DNA of 32,000 nucleotides from Paracoccus suum (GCF_003324675.1 NZ_CP030918.1:2160001-2192000); one strand, 5' to 3'. Positions 3,360 to 14,360 are shown, counted from the stretch's first letter. The notes: a model not told the origin generated them from the letters alone. Translations and numbers: made by a program.

Positions 3360-3385
3360 GCCCCGCCTTCACGGGGCTTTTTCAT
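3360..3385 (+). terminator. GC hairpin + T5 + CAT junction element E1
   Basis: Stem GCCCCG(3360-3365)/CGGGGC(3372-3377), 6-nt loop, TTTTT 3378-3382, then CATATTCGGAGCC leading into the RBS of the 3400 gene. No plus-strand gene lies immediately upstream, so a terminator role here is uncertain. Confidence 0.5.
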
Positions 3386-3399
3386 ATTCGGAGCCGAAG

Positions 3400-4244: not shown

Positions 4245-4268
4245 CCCGCTTCGAGCGGGATTTTTCAT
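4245..4268 (+). terminator. GC hairpin + T5 + CAT junction element E2
   Basis: CCCGCT(4245-4250) TCG AGCGGG(4254-4259), A, TTTTT(4261-4265), CATGCCCGGAAC. It follows the stop of the 3678..4202 gene. Confidence 0.6.
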
Positions 4269-4313
4269 GCCCGGAACGCGACATGCTCGGCCCGCCGGAT
4301 GAATGAGGCACCC

Positions 4314-6749: not shown

Positions 6750-7769
6750 ATGAAGAAACTCATTTTGCACATCGGCCAGTACAAGACTGGCAGCACTTCG
6801 ATTCAGAAGACGCTCGATCATAATCGTGCCCGTTTGATCGATCACGGCATCCTTTATCCCGAAACTGGTTGCCGCAAGTGGCAGCACGGAGCGCTGATAA
6901 GGGGCCTCAAGAATGAGTTTCACAAGGACCTGCCGGGTTCGTTCGACTCTGCGCCGTTACTGGAGGAAATCGGAACCTCGGGCTGCAAGCACGTGATCAT
7001 CAGTTGCGAAGGGATCTCGGGCGGTCGCATCACGCACATGGACCCGCCGTTGGTCGAACATTTGCTCCGCCGCTTGGGCGATTTAACCGAAGGCTGGGAC
7101 ACCACGGTTGTGTGGTACTATCGGCGCCAGGACGATGCGATCGAAAGCCGTATTATTCAGACCGTGAAGGGCAAGATCGCGGTGTCTCGGCCCGACCCCG
7201 AGAGTTATATGAAACTCGGCGAAGCGCTGGACTATTCGTTCTTTCAATCGGTTGTGCAAAGGGCGCTGCCACAAGCAAAAATTGTGCCGCGGTGTTTTTC
7301 GCGAGCATTGCTGGCGGAAGGCGATGTCGTGCGCGATTTCTGCAATATCGCGGGCATCGGCGAAGCGCTAGGCCCCGAGCACATCATCGAGGGTAATGTT
7401 AGCCCGACAGCTTCCAGTGTTGGCCTGCAACTGGCACTGAACCTGCTGATAGGGGCCGGTTACAATGTCGACCCGATCATTCGCAACATCCGCCGCATGG
7501 GCAACCAAGAGGTCGGAGAGAAGGCAAGCGTCTTTGGTCCGGAAACGCGCCGGGAGATCATGGAGTTCTTCGCTGAGAGCAACGCCAAGTTCATCAAAGA
7601 ACACGTCCCCGCAGAAGACCGGGAAAAGGTCGCCGCGCACTTCAGCACGCCCGTCAGCCAGCGGCCGAAAAATGTCACCGTTAGCGCTGAAGTGCTGGCG
7701 CGCGCACTTATGCAAGCTGGCGCGGCGATCACATTCGATACCGTCAAGACGCGGCGTGCGCCTCAATGA
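6750..7769 (+). CDS. PAPS-dependent sulfotransferase-like protein
   Basis: GGAG RBS at 6741-6744. MKKLILHIGQYKTGSTSIQ carries a 5'-PSB-type K-T-G-S-T loop, and YYRRQDDAIESR fits the 3'-PB R...S motif. A 60-nt spot count gives ~50% G+C, well below neighbouring genes. Confidence 0.6.
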   Translation: MKKLILHIGQYKTGSTSIQKTLDHNRARLIDHGILYPETGCRKWQHGALIRGLKNEFHKDLPGSFDSAPLLEEIGTSGCKHVIISCEGISGGRITHMDPPLVEHLLRRLGDLTEGWDTTVVWYYRRQDDAIESRIIQTVKGKIAVSRPDPESYMKLGEALDYSFFQSVVQRALPQAKIVPRCFSRALLAEGDVVRDFCNIAGIGEALGPEHIIEGNVSPTASSVGLQLALNLLIGAGYNVDPIIRNIRRMGNQEVGEKASVFGPETRREIMEFFAESNAKFIKEHVPAEDREKVAAHFSTPVSQRPKNVTVSAEVLARALMQAGAAITFDTVKTRRAPQ

Positions 7770-7853
7770 GGTCAATATAGAATGAAGTTTAAATGGCCGC
7801 GAACCAGCTAGCACCTGGCGCCGTCTCAAGATCCTTAGTGGCCAATTCTAAAG

Positions 7854-7890
7854 AAACCCGCCCCGTTTTCAGGAGGCGGGTTTCGCATTT
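7854..7890 (+). terminator. Hairpin element E4 (9-bp stem) followed by TTTCGCATTT
   Basis: AAACCCGCC(7854-7862) pairs with GGCGGGTTT(7875-7883) across a 12-nt loop. It lies downstream of the sulfotransferase stop and upstream of a strong SD at 7923-7930. Confidence 0.45.
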
Positions 7891-7933
7891 GAGGTCGGCG
7901 GGCCGAGATCGCCCCTGCCGCGAAGGAGGAAGC

Positions 7934-7990
7934 ATGACCAACATCGAGAACAAGATCACGCTCGACAACATGCTGACCGGCCATGCTTAG
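7934..7990 (+). CDS. 18-aa peptide (MTNIENKITLDNMLTGHA) with near-perfect Shine-Dalgarno, overlapping the next gene
   Basis: AAGGAGGA lies 4 nt upstream of the ATG. 15 of 17 third positions are G/C. Its last 8 nt overlap the ATG (7983) of the 4-TM protein. Confidence 0.5.
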   Translation: MTNIENKITLDNMLTGHA

Positions 7991-8426
7991 CCGCATCCGC
8001 TGGTTCACCAAATTCCCCGAGCGCAAGCTGGAGTTCGGCCTTGCGTTCTACACGCTCGGGCTCGGGCTCTGGCTGGCCCGGCCCGGCCTTTCCTTCAGCG
8101 GCAGTGCCGGCTTCTCCGGCGTCACCAGCATCATGCGAGAGGATTATTGGGCGGCGCTGTTCATCTGCGTCGGCAGCCTCCATGCCTACGCGCTGCACAT
8201 CAACGGCCGGGCGGCGTGGACGCCCTTCGCCCGGCTCGTCGCGCTGTTCGTGAACGGCCTGGTCCTGTTCAACCTTGCCTTCGGCTTCTGGCTCTACACG
8301 CCCCTTTCCTCGGGGGTCTACACCTACGGCTTCATGGCGTTCGGGTTCTGCGGGATGGCGATCTACGCCGCAGCCAAGGATTGCGGCCGGGAAATTGCGA
8401 TCTGGCGGAGCCGCGTGAATGGATAA
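7983..8426 (+). CDS. Four-TM small membrane protein (putative holin-class protein)
   Basis: Four hydrophobic segments (FGLAFYTLGLGLWLA; YWAALFICVGSLHAYALHI; LVALFVNGLVLFNLAFGFWLY; VYTYGFMAFGFCGMAIYAAA). It sits in the lysis region upstream of the endolysin. The functional call is an inference. Confidence 0.5.
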   Translation: MLSRIRWFTKFPERKLEFGLAFYTLGLGLWLARPGLSFSGSAGFSGVTSIMREDYWAALFICVGSLHAYALHINGRAAWTPFARLVALFVNGLVLFNLAFGFWLYTPLSSGVYTYGFMAFGFCGMAIYAAAKDCGREIAIWRSRVNG

Positions 8427-8763
8427 GGAACACCTGCAGGCAATCGGTACCATTGTCGGCGCGCTCGGGGCCGCTGTCCTCGCCGGGTTCGCGGCCGTGC
8501 GGCAAGCGATGAAGCCCGCCGCCCCGCCGCCTGAGCGACCGCCGACGGTGAACGAGACCAAGGCCGCGCTTGAGACGCTGCGCGACCGGATCGACCACGG
8601 CCACAGCATTGCCGAGGAAGACCGGCGAGACATGTCGCGGCAACTGGACCGGCTGGAACGCCTCATGCAGCGTGCCGACGACCGGCTGGAGCGCATCGAG
8701 GACCGGATGGTGTCCGACACGCGGCTGGGCACCGCCATCGCCCGGCTGGGTCGGCCAGAGTGA
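8419..8763 (+). CDS. N-terminal TM anchor + charged coiled-coil protein (i-spanin-like architecture)
   Basis: AIGTIVGALGAAVLAGFAAV is followed by a Pro-rich linker and the heptad-like segment ETLRDRIDHGHSIAEEDRRDMSRQLDRLERLMQRADDRLERIEDRM. It overlaps both neighbours (8419-8426 and 8760-8763). Confidence 0.5.
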   Translation: MDKEHLQAIGTIVGALGAAVLAGFAAVRQAMKPAAPPPERPPTVNETKAALETLRDRIDHGHSIAEEDRRDMSRQLDRLERLMQRADDRLERIEDRMVSDTRLGTAIARLGRPE

Positions 8764-8966
8764 CCCACTGGCGCATCTCGGCAGCGTTCGGGCTGCTGCT
8801 GACCGGGCGGCCGATTCCTATCTGCGCAATTGCCTACGCTGCCCCAAACTGCGCCGCACGGCGGGCCTTCATCCGCGCCACTGACTGGTGGTTCTGCGAG
8901 GACCAGCACGCCCGCCGCATCTGGCTGACGTGGCGCGTGGGCCGGGCGATCCGCGCCGCCGTCTAA
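8760..8966 (+). CDS. Small Cys-containing, Trp/Arg-rich protein (68 aa); an o-spanin role is only speculative
   Basis: GTG start overlaps the upstream stop (GTGA). Third-position G/C is high. N-terminal hydrophobic stretch ISAAFGLLLTG, but no canonical lipobox (…RPIPIC…). Confidence 0.4.
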   Translation: MTHWRISAAFGLLLTGRPIPICAIAYAAPNCAARRAFIRATDWWFCEDQHARRIWLTWRVGRAIRAAV

Positions 8967-8991
8967 GGCCCGTCTAACATCCGTCTAATGC
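8959..8991 (+). repeat. 3 x 11-bp tandem repeat CCGTCTAA(GGC/CAT/TGC)
   Basis: CCGTCTAA occurs at 8959, 8970 and 8981. The TAA triplets (8964, 8975, 8986) fall in all three reading frames, and the first is the stop codon of the 8760..8966 gene. Confidence 0.85.
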
Positions 8992-8992
8992 T

Positions 8993-9020
8993 GCCCGCCC
9001 TGACCGGCGGGCTTTTTCAT
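8993..9020 (+). terminator. GC hairpin + T5 + CAT junction element E3
   Basis: GCCCGCC(8993-8999) and GGCGGGC(9006-9012) with a 6-nt loop, TTTTT 9013-9017, then CATGTCTGGAGCC. 19 of 22 nt match E1 (GGGCTTTTTCATATTCGGAGCC). Confidence 0.6.
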
Positions 9021-9036
9021 GTCTGGAGCCATATCC

Positions 9037-9096
9037 ATGCGAGGCAATTTCGACGCGTGTCTGGCCGAAACCCTCAAGCATGAGGGCGGCTGGGCG
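9037..9096 (+). pseudogene. Orphan 5' fragment (~20 codons) of a GH108-type endolysin gene
   Basis: MRGNFDACLAETLKHEGGW parallels MRGNFEECLSEVLKHEGGY of the intact lysin at 9786. Homology ends at ~9096, after which the frame reads nonsense into the HNH gene region. Confidence 0.75.
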
Positions 9097-9115
9097 GAAA
9101 GGCGGGGTCTTTTTC

Positions 9116-9748
9116 CTATCTGGACAAGAGCCGCGCCGCAGCTTCGTCCGGCTCCATGCCCTTGTATCGCACATAGTTGTGGAGCGTTTTGTAGTTCACG
9201 CCCTTGAGGGCAGCGAAGTCCTTTAGGATCATCTTTTTGCCGTCGTGCTCTACCAGCACATTATCGGTCCTTGTTCTCGCCTGCTGCGAAGTGGTGGCCC
9301 ACCGGCAGTTATCCGGGCGATATCCGTCATCAGGGTTGATCCGATCAATAGACTTTCCGGGCGGGCACTCGCCCATGTCTCCAAGAAACGTCTCAAAGTC
9401 TCGACTCCACTCGGGGCACATTTGAATGCCGCGACCACCATAGATGGAAAACTTGGGATCGTTCGGGTTCTCGCAGCGAGACTTTGCGTGCCTGTAGCAC
9501 TTGAGGGTTCGGCTTTCCTTCCTGCCGACCTGATGCCCGTGCCGCAGTGACCGGGCGGCGATATCTTCTGCCTTTTTGCATCCGCAACTGCGCGTGTGTG
9601 AGTGCCTGACGTTCTCTAGGCGACACTCATAATCGTTCCCGCAGTCACATCGCCAAAGCCAAAACGTCTTTCCGCGAACGGGCGGAAGACGGCGAACCGC
9701 TACGAGCCGTCCATACCGCTCGCCGGTGATGTCGATAGCCGCAACCAT
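9116..9748 (-). CDS. HNH-type (HNH_3/AP2-like) homing endonuclease, free-standing
   Basis: ERYGRLVAV...WLWRCDCGN...SCGC N-terminal Cys cluster. YGGRGIQMCPEW..., then SIDRINPDDGYRPDNCRWATTSQQARTR, typical of phage HNH endonucleases. It is antisense to the surrounding lysis genes. Two 60-nt spot counts give ~50-53% G+C. Confidence 0.75.
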   Translation of the reverse strand: MVAAIDITGERYGRLVAVRRLPPVRGKTFWLWRCDCGNDYECRLENVRHSHTRSCGCKKAEDIAARSLRHGHQVGRKESRTLKCYRHAKSRCENPNDPKFSIYGGRGIQMCPEWSRDFETFLGDMGECPPGKSIDRINPDDGYRPDNCRWATTSQQARTRTDNVLVEHDGKKMILKDFAALKGVNYKTLHNYVRYKGMEPDEAAARLLSR

Positions 9749-9785
9749 TCCAACACCTCACTTCGTGACACAAGGACAGTCTACC

Positions 9786-10370
9786 ATGCGAGGAAACTTC
9801 GAGGAATGCCTTTCTGAGGTTCTCAAGCACGAGGGCGGATACGTCAACGATCCGCGCGACCCAGGCGGGGAAACCAACATGGGCATTTCCCGCCGAACTT
9901 ACCCCAACGAGAACATCAAGGGCATGACCCGCGCCCGCGCCGCTGTCCTTTACCGGCGCGACTTCTGGGACGCCGTGCAGGGCGACGCGCTGCCGCCCGG
10001 GCTGGATCTGGTGGCCTTCGACGGTGCAGTCAACAGCGGGCCCCGGCGGGGCGCGGAGTGGCTGCAAGCGGGAATCGGCGGGCTCGAGATCGACGGCAAG
10101 ATTGGCCAGCGCACTCTGATCGCCGCGACCGAGACCCCCGCTGTCGTCGCGATCGACCGTGCCTGCGACGCGCGTCTGGCCTTCCTGCGCCGGCTCGGCA
10201 CCTGGCCGCACTTCGGCGTGGGCTGGAGCCGCCGCGTTGCCGCCGTGCGCGCCCGCGCGCTCCAGATGGCCTCTCAGCGGCCTTTGCCGCGTCCCACGCC
10301 TGATCCCGCAGCGCAACCTGCCGCCCAGACCAGTTTCTGGGCGTGGCTGACCCGTATCTTCGGAGCATAA
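9786..10370 (+). CDS. Endolysin: GH108 N-acetylmuramidase domain + PG_binding_3 domain
   Basis: LKHEGGYVNDPRDPGGETNMGIS (GH108 EGGY...D.GG.T..GI motif). The C-terminal part FDGAVNSGPRRGAEWLQ...DGKIGQRTL is typical of PG_binding_3. I prefer the start at M21 of the tracked ORF. Confidence 0.85.
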   Translation: MRGNFEECLSEVLKHEGGYVNDPRDPGGETNMGISRRTYPNENIKGMTRARAAVLYRRDFWDAVQGDALPPGLDLVAFDGAVNSGPRRGAEWLQAGIGGLEIDGKIGQRTLIAATETPAVVAIDRACDARLAFLRRLGTWPHFGVGWSRRVAAVRARALQMASQRPLPRPTPDPAAQPAAQTSFWAWLTRIFGA

Positions 10371-10371
10371 C

Positions 10372-10803
10372 ATGACTCACCTGATCCTCGAATGGCTGCA
10401 GCCGGCCCTCACCCTCATTATCGAGGCCGGCGCGGCCGCTGTCCTCACTCTGCTGGCCCGCTATATCCCGCTGGTGGCGCGCCTCTACTCCGACCAGCGG
10501 AACCGAGACGCGCTGCACAAGGCGATCGACACCGGCGTCGACCGGGCGCTCGCCGCAGGCGAGCTTGCCGTTGGCACTGTGCCCGGCGTGGCGGCAATCG
10601 ACCTCGCGCTGTCCTATGTCGAGAAGTCGGTGCCCGGCGCGATCAAGCACTTCTTCAAGACGAACGCGGACGCGGCGCGGGACCAGATCACCCAGATGAT
10701 CGTGGCCAAGATGGGCGCGAAGGCAGCACCGATGCCGGTAGCCGTCGAGGCGGGCGATCCGCTCGCCGAGGCGTTGACCGAGGCGATGGCTATCAGAAAC
10801 TAA
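10372..10803 (+). CDS. Single N-terminal-TM phage membrane protein (holin-like or lysis accessory)
   Basis: The ATG lies 1 nt after the lysin TAA. LQPALTLIIEAGAAAVLTLLARYIPLV forms the TM segment, followed by a soluble Ala-rich domain. The role is inferred from its position immediately after the endolysin. Confidence 0.5.
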   Translation: MTHLILEWLQPALTLIIEAGAAAVLTLLARYIPLVARLYSDQRNRDALHKAIDTGVDRALAAGELAVGTVPGVAAIDLALSYVEKSVPGAIKHFFKTNADAARDQITQMIVAKMGAKAAPMPVAVEAGDPLAEALTEAMAIRN

Positions 10804-11036
10804 ACCGGCCGCTCTGGCGCGCCGGGCGGACGCATTCCGGGCACGGTCGTCTCGCGCATCACCGTCATGGAGATCGCCCCGCGCCGGTCGCACACGCTGC
10901 ACCGGGCGCGGGCAAGCCGCTCGTCTCGGGGCCGCCACGGGCCGGAGGGCAGTTCCACCTCACCCACATGACCGCACCCGCACTCGAATCGAATCCAGTG
11001 CCCTCCGGCGAGGGGCCGAGCGCTCAGGTCGTGCAT
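10800..11036 (-). CDS. Zinc-ribbon mini-protein (78 aa; CxC...CxxC)
   Basis: GAGGG RBS 4 nt upstream of the ATG. Cys pairs are FECGCGH and RCSVCDR. It is convergent with, and overlaps by 4 nt, the 10372..10803 gene. Confidence 0.5.
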   Translation of the reverse strand: MHDLSARPLAGGHWIRFECGCGHVGEVELPSGPWRPRDERLARARCSVCDRRGAISMTVMRETTVPGMRPPGAPERPV

Positions 11037-11079
11037 TTATCCCTCGATCGGCTCGGGGGCGGCGCGATCCAGGAGAACG

Positions 11080-11901
11080 TCAGGTGATATTCTCGGCAAC
11101 TGCTGCAACCAAGTCGCCGGCGTGAGCTTCGTCCATCACCACTGGCTGCAAGGGACTGGCGCGCAGAAACTCGACCATTTTACGGTACCGAGGCATGAGT
11201 GACTGAATCGAGGGTTTTCCCGTCACAAAGTAGGGGCGCACCTTGCCCTCACATTCTGCGATCCCCTGTAGACGCCCAGCCCACTTAGCGGCCTTATCCA
11301 TCATGCGCTCTTCATCAGCGGAGTCGAATGAAAGTGGCTGTATCACATGCCACACACCGTTCTGAATGGCGTGTTCAAACTCGATCGCCGCGAACTTAGA
11401 GCGCACTACATGAGGCTGCAAACGATCATGCAGCTCGGCGATTTCTAACTTTCGTCGAACGCTCTCGAAGACCATTTCATCAGTGCGAACCTCTCGCCCC
11501 GCCGCTTTGTCATATCGTCCGACAAACCGAGCATAAACCTTCTCCAAGGCGGCTTCAGGGTCATCGGCGACACCCGATCCCGTCATGCCCCATGACAGGC
11601 TGCTATCGTCAGGAATGAGTACCTTTCGGCCAATGTCGATCGCGCTGCCACTGGGCATCAACAGTCCTGAGGCGGCTGCGATTTTGTCGAAGCGTCGTTC
11701 CAAGGCCTTCACTGCGTCACGCAGCGCCCCGTGGTTCAGATCGGGGTAGGCGTTTGCGAGTCGCCCTTGACCTGTCCGGGCTTTGAGCTTCAGGAATCGC
11801 GCACCCTCACTGAGCAGCAGCACACCCGCGTTCAGCGCCTCGCCGACCCAGACGTCGTGGCGGTACTGTAAAACTGCGTAAGAGTAGGCATGCTTGGTCA
11901 T
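11080..11901 (-). CDS. DUF3037-domain protein with ~150-aa C-terminal extension
   Basis: The N-terminus YSYAVLQYRHDVWVGEALNAGVLLLSEG matches the DUF3037 signature (Y-x-hh-R/Q-Y-x-P/H-D-x-x-x-GE-x-hNhGVhL). The ATG overlaps the stop of the upstream kinase-like gene (ATGA at 11898-11901). Confidence 0.7.
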   Translation of the reverse strand: MTKHAYSYAVLQYRHDVWVGEALNAGVLLLSEGARFLKLKARTGQGRLANAYPDLNHGALRDAVKALERRFDKIAAASGLLMPSGSAIDIGRKVLIPDDSSLSWGMTGSGVADDPEAALEKVYARFVGRYDKAAGREVRTDEMVFESVRRKLEIAELHDRLQPHVVRSKFAAIEFEHAIQNGVWHVIQPLSFDSADEERMMDKAAKWAGRLQGIAECEGKVRPYFVTGKPSIQSLMPRYRKMVEFLRASPLQPVVMDEAHAGDLVAAVAENIT

Positions 11902-12431
11902 CGGTCGAAATTATGCTCTATGTTGGCGACGATTGCGTCCACGTTTGCCACTGCCTCCGCCGTATAGTGGGCAATCCGCGAAGCTGCTACCTTGTTCCAG
12001 CAGCCGGGAACATCATCAGCGATAAGGGCGAAGGTGTCGTCCGGCAAGGCCCTCCACAGTCCTGCCGCTGCCGCGAAGTTCACGTGGGTCTTGGGGCGCA
12101 GCTTTGGCCAGAGAGGGTGCATCTCGTACTCCCCCGCATGATTTTCAACACCTCCAAGGTGCCAGGGTATCTTATGATAGTCGCGTTCGACATCTGTCCC
12201 GGTCGCAGCAACAAAGGCTTCCCCGTGATCAATCATCAAGAACTGATCACCTTTGACGAGCAAGTTGGGGTTGGCTGCGCATCTGTCCCAATTCTGCACA
12301 ATTGTATCGAAAAGGTATATCGCCGCTGCCAGTTGCAGTTTGTCCCGCGCAACCGACATGGAGTCGCTCCACTCGAACCAGCCAGCGCCACCGCTGAGCG
12401 AGCCGAATAGAATTTGCGGCCCCTGCCTCAA
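11898..12431 (-). pseudogene. HipA-like (HipA_2-type) Ser/Thr kinase, C-lobe only; N-lobe missing (5'-truncated)
   Basis: Catalytic-loop-like IVQNWDRCAANPNLL and metal-binding LMIDHGEAF are present. Homology to full-length family members, from memory, begins at about the first codons. Only a TTG start is available, and the upstream frame (open to 12560) has no ATG/GTG and no N-lobe-like sequence. Confidence 0.6.
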
Positions 12432-12597
12432 CCGTCGCCAAACGCCGAGAGCGCTCGGTCGAGCTGTTCGATCTAATGCTTCAAAGGCATATTTGTCTCG
12501 TTGCTTCCGGCCGTGGATTCGCGCCGCGCGACCGACCGTAGACCGCCGCGGATCGTCCGACTAGAGGGGCTCCGGCTCCGCGGGCAGGGTTTCAAGG

Positions 12598-12672
12598 GTG
12601 ATACACTCTCTGGCGCAACCCATTGATTTATCAAGGCGCGCTTTTCCCGCGTGATACAGGGCAACCCATTGA
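12598..12672 (+). repeat. Direct repeat GTGATACA-(N2/N9)-GCAACCCATTGA x2
   Basis: Copy 1 at 12598-12626 (GTGATACACTCTCTGGCGCAACCCATTGA) and copy 2 at 12651-12672 (GTGATACAGGGCAACCCATTGA). They lie in the non-coding gap between the truncated kinase gene and the host BI-1 terminator. Confidence 0.7.
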
Positions 12673-12732
12673 GACTGCTGCTCTCTTGCAATCCTGCCGG
12701 GGTCGCCAGCCCGCGGATCAGAAGCGCAAATG

Positions 12733-12760
12733 AAAAGGCCGGGGAAAATCCCCGGCCTTC
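12733..12760 (-). terminator. Intrinsic terminator of the BI-1 family gene
   Basis: Minus strand reads GGCCGGGGA-TTTT-CCCCGGCC followed by TTTTCATTT. It lies ~25 nt downstream of the stop at 12785. Confidence 0.75.
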
Positions 12761-12784
12761 GTTCTGTGCGATTTAAGGTACGGA

Positions 12785-13537
12785 TCAGTTGCGCTGGCCC
12801 ATGAAGCTGAGCAGGAACTGGAACAGGTTCAGGAAGTCCAGGTACAACTGCAGCGCGCCCATGATGGCAGCCTTGCCGAGGAAATCGCTGTCGGTGTTCG
12901 CCAGCTCCAGGTAGGCGCGCTTGATGTTCTGCGTGTCGAACGCGGTCAGCGCGGCGAACAGCAGCACGCCAATTGCCGAGATCGCCATCTGCATCGCCGG
13001 CGAGCGCAGGAACAGGTTCACCACCATCGCGACGATCAGGCCGATCACACCCATCACGAGGAAGGTGCCAAAGCCCGACAGGTCACGCTTGGTCGTATAA
13101 CCGTAGAGTGACAGGCCGGCGAAGGCGATCGCTGTGACCAGGAAGGTCTGTACCACCGAATAGCCGGTGTAGATCAGCAGGATCGAGCTGAGCGATAGGC
13201 CCATCATCGCCGAAAAGGCGTAGAACATTGTCGTCGCGGCAGAGATCGACAGGCGATTCAGCGCAGCGCCGAATGCCATGACCATCGCCAGCGGGGCGAA
13301 GATGATGACCCACTTGAGGGGCGAGGCGTAGATAGCGCGACCGAAGTCGGTCAGCGTGCGACCCTGATCAGTATCGATGACTGCCAGCCCGTTGATCGCC
13401 CACGCGGCGAGTGCGGTGATGGCCATGCCCGTGGCCATCAGGCCATAGACCTTGTTCATATGGGCGCGCAGCCCCTCGTCGTAGACCGCCCCGCGCGTGC
13501 CCACCTGAGGCTGGCGGATCGTGTTGTATTCGGCCAT
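12785..13537 (-). CDS. Bax-inhibitor-1/YccA (BI-1) family inner-membrane protein
   Basis: MAEYNTIRQP...YDEGLRAHMNKVYGLMATGMAITALAAW followed by 7 hydrophobic segments, typical of the family. I prefer the ATG at 13537 (GGAGGG 9 nt upstream) over the tracked TTG at 13543. Confidence 0.9.
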   Translation of the reverse strand: MAEYNTIRQPQVGTRGAVYDEGLRAHMNKVYGLMATGMAITALAAWAINGLAVIDTDQGRTLTDFGRAIYASPLKWVIIFAPLAMVMAFGAALNRLSISAATTMFYAFSAMMGLSLSSILLIYTGYSVVQTFLVTAIAFAGLSLYGYTTKRDLSGFGTFLVMGVIGLIVAMVVNLFLRSPAMQMAISAIGVLLFAALTAFDTQNIKRAYLELANTDSDFLGKAAIMGALQLYLDFLNLFQFLLSFMGQRN

Positions 13538-13997
13538 GAGCAAATGCCCTCCGGATGTCCGTCATGGGTGTCACGGGGGCGGCCCTCTGGGCCGTCCGCT
13601 TGCGGACAATATCGGTGTAGCCGTCTGAAAATTCAACGCCGCCTGGCTGACAAACGCGTTGGCACCTCATCTTTTGCCCGGGCCGGCAGTTCTGCAGGCA
13701 TAGGTTGAAGGCGGGGTTCCGCCGGCCGGCGTTGTTAACACTTGTTAATCCCTATTCAGTCGGGCACCCCGCAAGGTGAGTTAACCTGTTCATGCCTTTC
13801 ACCGCTGGCTGATTCGCATGAATCTGGGGACCTTTTGGCGGCGCGAGGCATCCGTGGACGGCACCCGTCACGGTTGTTGACCTAATTTAATGTTAAGGAC
13901 CTGTATATTTCGGCAGGTTCACGCCAGTTCACTGTTTTTTTCCTCGCTGGCACACAGGACCAGCGCTACCCACCTCAGCAGCGGGTGAGGAAGTGAG

Positions 13998-14360
13998 ATG
14001 ACACACAACGTAGATGTTCATGTAGGTAAGCGCATCCGGCATCGCCGCTGGATGATCGACATGACGCAGCAGCAGTTGGCCGAGAAGGTCGGGATCAAGT
14101 TCCAGCAGATCCAGAAATACGAGACGGGTGCGAACCGCGTCTCGGCCTCCCGCCTTTGGGACATTGCCCACGCGCTGGAGGTTCCGGTGTCCTTCTGTTT
14201 CGAGGGCCTGGAAACCGGCGGCGTCCCGACCGGTCGGATCGAGGGTGATATCCTCGCCGACAAGGAAGCGCTGCAGCTGGTGCGTGCGTATTACGCGATG
14301 CCCGAGGCCCAGCGCCGCCAGATTTTCGAGCTGGCACGGGTCCTATCCGACGCCGCCTGA
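13998..14360 (+). CDS. XRE-family HTH transcriptional regulator (PraR/PhrR-like)
   Basis: HVGKRIRHRRWMIDMTQQQLAEKVGIKFQQIQKYETGANRVSASRLWDIAHALEVPVSFCFEG, the conserved alphaproteobacterial Cro/CI-type HTH. RBS is GAGGAAG. Confidence 0.85.
   Translation: MTHNVDVHVGKRIRHRRWMIDMTQQQLAEKVGIKFQQIQKYETGANRVSASRLWDIAHALEVPVSFCFEGLETGGVPTGRIEGDILADKEALQLVRAYYAMPEAQRRQIFELARVLSDAA

Follow-up and report, generated by a model that had tools for sequence, protein, structure and literature searches.

A probable decayed copy of the PDC-M66/HipAD anti-phage cassette next to a lysis-type cassette in Paracoccus suum

We analyzed a 32,000-nucleotide stretch of the Paracoccus suum genome (GCF_003324675.1, NZ_CP030918.1:2160001-2192000), hereafter called the window, in which a preliminary description had drawn attention to three minus-strand genes for a HipA-like kinase, a DUF3037 protein and a small zinc-ribbon-like protein. 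The kinase–DUF3037 locus belongs, in degenerate form, to a defense family that is already known and has been validated experimentally, and positions 11066-12432 very probably represent a decayed copy of the two-gene anti-phage toxin–antitoxin cassette termed PDC-M66 or DS-6 (‘HipAD’). The toxin of intact systems is a compact HipA_2 kinase of 268 aa, which a translationally coupled DUF3037 protein neutralizes. Here, the upstream control region would have been lost through deletion or illegitimate recombination, along with kinase codons 1-90, which encode the whole β-sheet N-lobe with its near-invariant motifs. The remaining C-lobe would be unable to bind or orient ATP, leaving a dead toxin, no kinase-dependent abortive infection and DUF3037 as an intact orphan antitoxin of uncertain expression. 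The fragment would be foreign DNA (57% G+C content, GC) located between a lysis cassette of phage type and the host gene Bax1-I, and the zinc-ribbon-like gene a separate phage-associated gene that is co-oriented by chance. The relevant features are as follows.

11066-12432, minus strand: acquired fragment as a whole, 1,367 bp, GC ~57%, with sharp edges on both sides
11898-12431, minus strand: kinase remnant (HipA_2/PDC-M66A, 5′-truncated), a 177-aa open reading frame (ORF) that is open only from a TTG at the junction
11080-11901, minus strand: DUF3037/PDC-M66B gene, 273 aa, intact; putative antitoxin partner
10800-11036, minus strand: small CxCGH...RD...RARCxxC zinc-ribbon-like gene, 78 aa; phage-associated and outside the module

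Identity of the gene pair and its intact relatives

Profile hidden Markov model searches confirmed both family assignments of the preliminary description, with matches in Pfam and PADLOC far beyond chance. The kinase remnant matched HipA_2 (E = 1.6e-7, residues 7-86 aligned to profile positions 82-165 of 240), its sole Pfam match, and PDC-M66A in PADLOC (E = 6.3e-25, profile positions 110-266 of 270). For the DUF3037 protein, Pfam returned DUF3037 (E = 1.3e-13) and PADLOC returned PDC-M66B over the full length (E = 2.6e-57, profile positions 2-275 of 281). PHROGs also includes both families (phrog_3162 and phrog_5137). The kinase stop codon overlaps the DUF3037 start codon in an ATGA at 11898-11901, which places the DUF3037 gene directly downstream of the kinase, as is characteristic of PDC-M66/HipAD. 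A 43-nt spacer separates DUF3037 from the 78-aa ORF, whose ATG is preceded at 4 nt by a strong GAGGGA Shine–Dalgarno sequence. In all these details, the layout agrees with the preliminary description, as does the base composition: the kinase remnant has a GC of 56.7% and DUF3037 one of 57.3%, compared to 72.6% in the 78-aa ORF, 66.7% in the gene for a 143-aa membrane protein on the left and 61.7% in Bax1-I on the right. At third codon positions (GC3), the module reaches 0.63-0.65 versus 0.82-0.87 in these three neighbors, and GC breaks at the edges of the 11066-12432 block.

The pair is the PADLOC candidate PDC-M66, to which a function has already been assigned; the preliminary statement that none existed is, therefore, outdated. 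A strong association links DUF3037 with HipA-like kinases, and the pair in the Retron-Sda1 operon constitutes a stand-alone defense system for which the retron reverse transcriptase and noncoding RNA are dispensable; deletion of the kinase abolished defense against phage Bas51, and deletion of DUF3037 was toxic (PMC12548924). DS-6 of Escherichia coli, identified with DefensePredictor and validated, likewise pairs a HipA-family kinase with a DUF3037+DUF1829 protein; defense was lost when the kinase, DS-6A, carried a catalytic mutation, and AlphaFold3 predicts a complex of the A and B proteins (PMC13092281). As cited in that paper, DS-6 was found independently, and renamed HipAD, in work on E. 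coli prophage defense systems by Brenes & Laub 2025. For other family members, these studies back the toxin–antitoxin or abortive-infection logic that had been suggested for the window locus. Kinase-dependent phage protection and toxicity without DUF3037, known from those members, are predicted to be lost here.

With PDC-M66, the window locus shares matches of its proteins to both profiles, the gene order and the overlapping stop and start codons; unlike PDC-M66, its kinase is without an N-lobe and an upstream control region, and toxin and defense functions are predicted to be lost. DS-6/HipAD is characterized by a kinase catalytic residue needed for defense, a proposed toxin–antitoxin or abortive-infection logic and carriage on mobile elements. 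Its combination of a HipA-family kinase with a DUF3037 partner recurs in the window, but the window copy is truncated and its partner protein differs: DS-6B is a DUF3037+DUF1829 protein, whereas the C-terminal half of the window protein (residues ~130-273) has no Pfam domain, and the two are likened by description, not by sequence. A fold search with the AlphaFold2 model of DUF3037 yielded only nonsignificant restriction-endonuclease-like matches (Cdn1/Card1, E = 3e-3; Mus81/XPF; EndoMS). Classical HipBA (E. coli HipA, PDB 3dnv/3tpv; Shewanella 4pu4) resembles the pair in its kinase fold (Foldseek E ~1e-3, template modeling (TM) score ~0.5) and in having a kinase toxin neutralized by a co-transcribed partner. 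It differs in kinase length (~440 aa versus 268 aa for HipA_2 kinases), in gene order, which is toxin-first in the present family, and in the partner, which is the helix–turn–helix (HTH) protein HipB rather than DUF3037. We found neither HipA_C nor the N-terminal coupling domain nor an upstream HipB at the locus, and no adjacent minus-strand HTH gene. As far as structural models indicate, the likeness to classical HipA is at the fold level only.

For comparison, we used 17 loci with close homologs of the pair. In line with the association noted in the preliminary description, the kinase lies directly upstream of DUF3037 in all 17, and it is full-length (profile positions 1-268) in every one of the 16 that are not interrupted by a contig end; the only truncated kinase is that of the window. 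Close intact relatives (73-88% identity for the kinase, 75-95% for DUF3037) are sited in integrative elements and defense islands. The DUF3037 homolog P0060 (95% identical) always occurs in a single element arranged as DUF927 ... RhuM ... PhageMin_Tail, kinase and DUF3037, tyrosine integrase and host DNA, and an integrase also accompanies the module in Cereibacter johrii. Elsewhere, the module is found near GmrSD (L002), flanked by PDC-S15 (FRG) and PD-Lambda-1 (L003), following a type I restriction–modification system (L098) or alone amid housekeeping genes (L100/L101). These contexts, with the closest intact relatives adjoining a tyrosine integrase, support a mobile defense cassette, as had been presumed. 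A scan of genome contigs with DUF3037 recovered two loci only. Locus L003 (Falsirhodobacter flavus JARWBI010000007.1, positions 7768-14292) is in itself a compact defense island comprising PDC-S15 (FRG), DUF6998, HipA_2/DUF3037, PD-Lambda-1 (DUF4041-T5orf172) and Fic.

Truncation of the kinase

In a blastn comparison with the closest intact locus, L001 (Logan SRR25399867), the window aligned in one block, with 11066-12432 corresponding to L001 10273-11639 (88% identity over 1,367 bp). Homology opens at codon 91 of the 268 kinase codons and closes 14 nt past the DUF3037 stop codon. The truncation surmised in the preliminary description can, thus, be placed precisely by alignment to full-length homologs, which measure 268 aa and match PDC-M66A over profile positions 20-266 of 270. 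Upstream of the breakpoint, the reading frame continues for 14 unrelated codons before a stop, and a tblastn search with the N-terminal 100 kinase residues detected no remnant elsewhere in the 32-kb window. According to an alignment of 19 full-length homologs, G15-R16-T17, K37 and E51-R52-E53-W54 are near-invariant, and all of them fall in the lost segment. The catalytic-loop motif NWDRCAANPN (DRxxxNPN) and IDHG are both kept, as noted before.

The AlphaFold2 model of P0001, a full-length 268-aa homolog, shows a kinase fold (predicted local distance difference test (pLDDT) score 87.4, predicted TM (pTM) score 0.88). In this model, the part corresponding to the lost segment contains strands 2-11, 20-25 and 31-37, an αC-like helix (49-62) and strand 70-74. 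Foldseek matched the model to the HipA-like kinase CtkA (E = 1e-5) and also to PI4KII-alpha, Rio kinases and HipA (3dnv, 3tpv and 4pu4), while a HMMER comparison of the kinase family profile with PDB sequences revealed no detectable similarity to any chain. Residues 1-90 would accordingly form the ATP-binding N-lobe that is missing from the window copy. PDC-M66/HipAD systems possess a complete kinase domain with the N-lobe Lys/Glu and the C-lobe catalytic loop, of which the window copy retains the latter only. Because the N-lobe appears to be lost and all 16 uncut relatives are full-length, the remnant C-lobe is almost certainly catalytically dead, the toxin inactive and kinase-dependent defense absent. 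The inactivation proposed in the preliminary description is consistent with this loss of all near-invariant N-lobe residues.

Kinase homologs of 153, 182 and 194 aa were considered as recurrent N-truncated forms and rejected, as the DNA encodes full-length ORFs with TTG or CTG starts. At L005 and L098, for example, the full 268 aa are encoded from a TTG or CTG despite short database entries. In this clade, a TTG or CTG start is the usual one for HipA_2 kinases (LICNLTG...; L002, L005, L098, P0014, P0019 and P0026-P0037), and N-truncated database proteins of 153-249 aa exist because gene callers miss these starts. Apparent truncations of HipA_2 kinases in databases are, thus, mostly artifacts; one short version is named ‘ATP-dependent protease ATP-binding subunit’.

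Constraint, expression and alternative explanations

Several observations weigh against simple decay. The retained C-lobe has neither a stop codon nor a frameshift, and all residues in it that are invariant across the 19-homolog alignment are still present. The ratio of nonsynonymous to synonymous substitution rates (dN/dS) relative to L001, at a synonymous divergence (dS) of ~0.48, is still low for the kinase C-part at 0.149; it is 0.051 for DUF3037, and values for intact–intact kinase pairs range from 0.065 to 0.12. Polarizing the kinase changes with three outgroups assigned nine nonsynonymous (N) and nine synonymous (S) changes to the window branch versus 5N/9S to the L001 branch, a nonsignificant difference, and significant relaxation was, thus, not seen. 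For DUF3037, the counts (6N/16S for the window versus 4N/15S for L001) did not differ significantly either. The lack of stops, the low dN/dS and the nonsignificant branch counts together imply that the truncation is recent or that the fragment is still constrained. In addition, we infer the loss of kinase activity from missing motifs, and the breakpoint is known from a single sequence, where an assembly error is possible.

Expression of the locus is doubtful, given the loss of the native upstream region, the failure to find a sigma-70-like promoter and the terminator upstream. Similarity to intact loci sets in only within the kinase ORF, leaving the module without its own promoter or operator region. 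A scan of 10600-13000 detected no sigma-70-like promoter, although such a scan covers alphaproteobacterial promoters poorly, and the co-oriented upstream gene Bax1-I ends in a strong terminator hairpin (free energy −26.5 kcal/mol, z = −5.4). An internal ATG at 12359, preceded at 7 nt by GGAG, could serve as the start of a 153-aa kinase fragment and preserve translational coupling to DUF3037, and the intact DUF3037 gene may survive as an orphan antitoxin.

The latter idea can be extended to a functional orphan antitoxin, perhaps assisted by the dead kinase C-lobe as a decoy, that a mobile element keeps against HipAD/PDC-M66 kinases of its host or of rivals. We regard this as improbable. It would accommodate the intact DUF3037 ORF with its dN/dS of 0.05, the stop-free C-lobe with its full set of invariant residues, the internal ATG that could maintain coupling and the ability of DUF3037 to neutralize the kinase in intact systems (PMC12548924). 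Nevertheless, it sits poorly with the loss of the native upstream region, the negative promoter scan and the insulation from Bax1-I by the terminator; moreover, most of what the low dN/dS records predates the truncation, and the branch counts are too small to establish ongoing constraint. The 17 related loci include no other truncated or kinase-less copy, and tblastn with the window DUF3037 protein against 50,697 phage records found no match. Should an orphan DUF3037 be expressed and neutralize intact kinases, it would exemplify anti-defense or anti-addiction by antitoxin capture, and an antitoxin-only element would be the first natural derivative of this kind in the defense family.

It is very unlikely that the truncation itself is an artifact of misassembly at 12432/12433 or of gene calling and that the real kinase is complete. 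The many artifactually short database versions from TTG or CTG starts make such a suspicion reasonable, but their N-terminal coding DNA is present in frame, whereas DNA homology in the window ends at 12432 and the unrelated codons, early stop and empty tblastn search described above leave no place for an N-terminal segment. Least credible, to the point of being nearly dismissible, is a functional three-gene module with the zinc-ribbon protein as a conserved third component, as the preliminary description had it. Co-orientation, close spacing, a Shine–Dalgarno sequence of its own and the conservation of the 78-aa protein speak for such a unit. Against it, homology to intact modules ends shortly after DUF3037, where GC rises from 57% to 73%; the zinc-ribbon family is absent from all 17 module loci and the module from all three viral contigs carrying the family. 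In one of these contigs (L011), the zinc-ribbon gene comes immediately after a lysis cassette, in which small membrane-protein and lipoprotein ORFs follow a GH108 endolysin 47% identical to that of the window, near the contig end.

A decayed PDC-M66/DS-6 cassette, the reading that we favor, has mainly annotation value as a case of decay in a validated defense system in which the toxin goes first and the antitoxin is retained. PADLOC-style two-gene matches can be dead copies, and the profile coverage of the kinase needs checking.

The 78-aa gene and the flanking regions

The 78-aa ORF had no match in Pfam, PADLOC, PHROGs or NCBIfam, and a word-indexed search found no homolog, which made it a candidate for a spurious ORF. 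This was overturned by an exhaustive phmmer search, which revealed ~11 small proteins (64-95 aa) with 44-52% identity; its top match, the 3,698-aa protein P0045, was dismissed as a spurious repeat protein. In the family alignment, C19, C21, G22, R37, R43 and C46 are invariant, and H23, D38 and C49 are near-invariant. The ORF shares these residues and the size of ~65-95 aa that define the small CxCGH...CxxC family, for which zinc ribbon is a label suggested by the residue pattern, and its GC3 of 0.82 is coding-like. Judging from these features, it is a real conserved small gene. Because homology ends before it, GC jumps and its family is missing from the module loci, it lies outside the module and is best read as a putative phage accessory gene of the neighboring block. 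The family members are located near the ends of ~40-kb viral contigs (L009 6001-6138, L010 2579-2839 and L011 5899-6204), in L010 at 1.4 kb from an integrase. As a whole, the CxCGH...RD...RARCxxCG family (65-95 aa) is unannotated, without a Pfam or PHROG model, and sits after lysis genes or near an integrase.

The surroundings of the acquired fragment comprise three further features.

9726-10803, plus strand: lysis-type cassette with a GH108 endolysin (9726-10370) followed by the 143-aa membrane protein; converges on the 78-aa ORF
12433-12784, no strand: noncoding junction from the breakpoint to Bax1-I, containing the Bax1-I intrinsic terminator hairpin (~12737-12760, minus strand)
12785-13543, minus strand: host Bax1-I/YccA-like gene, the first gene of a syntenic block reaching ~21244

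To the right, Bax1-I is accompanied by the host genes for an HTH_3 regulator, an inositol monophosphatase, MgtE and a class II ribonucleotide reductase. One metagenome contig has these genes in the same order, with a Bax1-I 69% identical to that of the window, and synteny stops at the Bax1-I terminator. An empty-site comparison through Bax1-I relatives reached a best identity of just 69% and synteny on the host side only. Exact-sequence look-ups with the DUF3037, Bax1-I and HTH proteins of the window returned no match. Searches of the junction were negative for Rfam families, for sigma-70-like promoters and for similarity to intact modules. The window contains no tRNA, attachment-site repeat or integrase, and no convincing flanking repeats occur at the junction.

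To the left, we identified the 143-aa membrane protein (phrog_17576), the GH108 endolysin, an HNH endonuclease (phrog_374) and a weakly tail-fiber/pectate-lyase-like 640-aa protein. The preliminary description had contrasted the three co-oriented minus-strand genes with an opposing phage-like block. Their orientation is as reported, but they are not alone in opposing the plus-strand genes, as the HNH gene (9116-9748) shares their strand. The phage-like character holds for the tail-fiber-like gene, the HNH gene, the endolysin and one PHROG-matching membrane protein; the case for a prophage is weaker than stated, with nothing more seen in the window. Viral-contig scans with the 143-aa and 640-aa proteins and blastn against phages, aimed at a prophage, returned almost nothing. 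A prophage origin of the left block is plausible, but no more than a lysis/tail-fiber fragment is documented.

Further observations concern the left block itself. At the left end of the window, positions 53-2164 encode a 703-aa sulfatase-RTX protein with 27-nt tandem periodicity at 1750-1911 and an additional match to phrog_19870; one would not usually expect a sulfatase with RTX calcium-binding repeats where a phage-like block ends. A second version, MRGNFDACLAETLKHEGGW, of the first ~20 endolysin codons (MRGNFEECLSEVLKHEGGY) is present at ~9037-9100 (region 9019-9207, 9116-9850), immediately upstream of the HNH gene's 3′ end (minus strand; phrog_374, E = 1.5e-57). In this arrangement, the HNH gene resembles a homing-endonuclease cassette that has entered the endolysin gene at its 5′ end, with the N-terminus restored downstream. 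A 22-nt motif, GGGCTTTTTCAT(A/G)T(T/C)(C/T)GGAGCC, is present in three copies (3374-3395, 4257-4278 and 9009-9030), and the ATG of the endolysin duplicate lies within the last of them; the motif may correspond to a terminator tail plus start region common to cassette boundaries. Lastly, in the cassette at 9726-10803 the endolysin combines GH108 and PG_binding_3 domains and is followed by the 143-aa protein with a single transmembrane segment, an arrangement that presumably resembles the separate endolysin/holin locus of Rhodobacter gene transfer agents.

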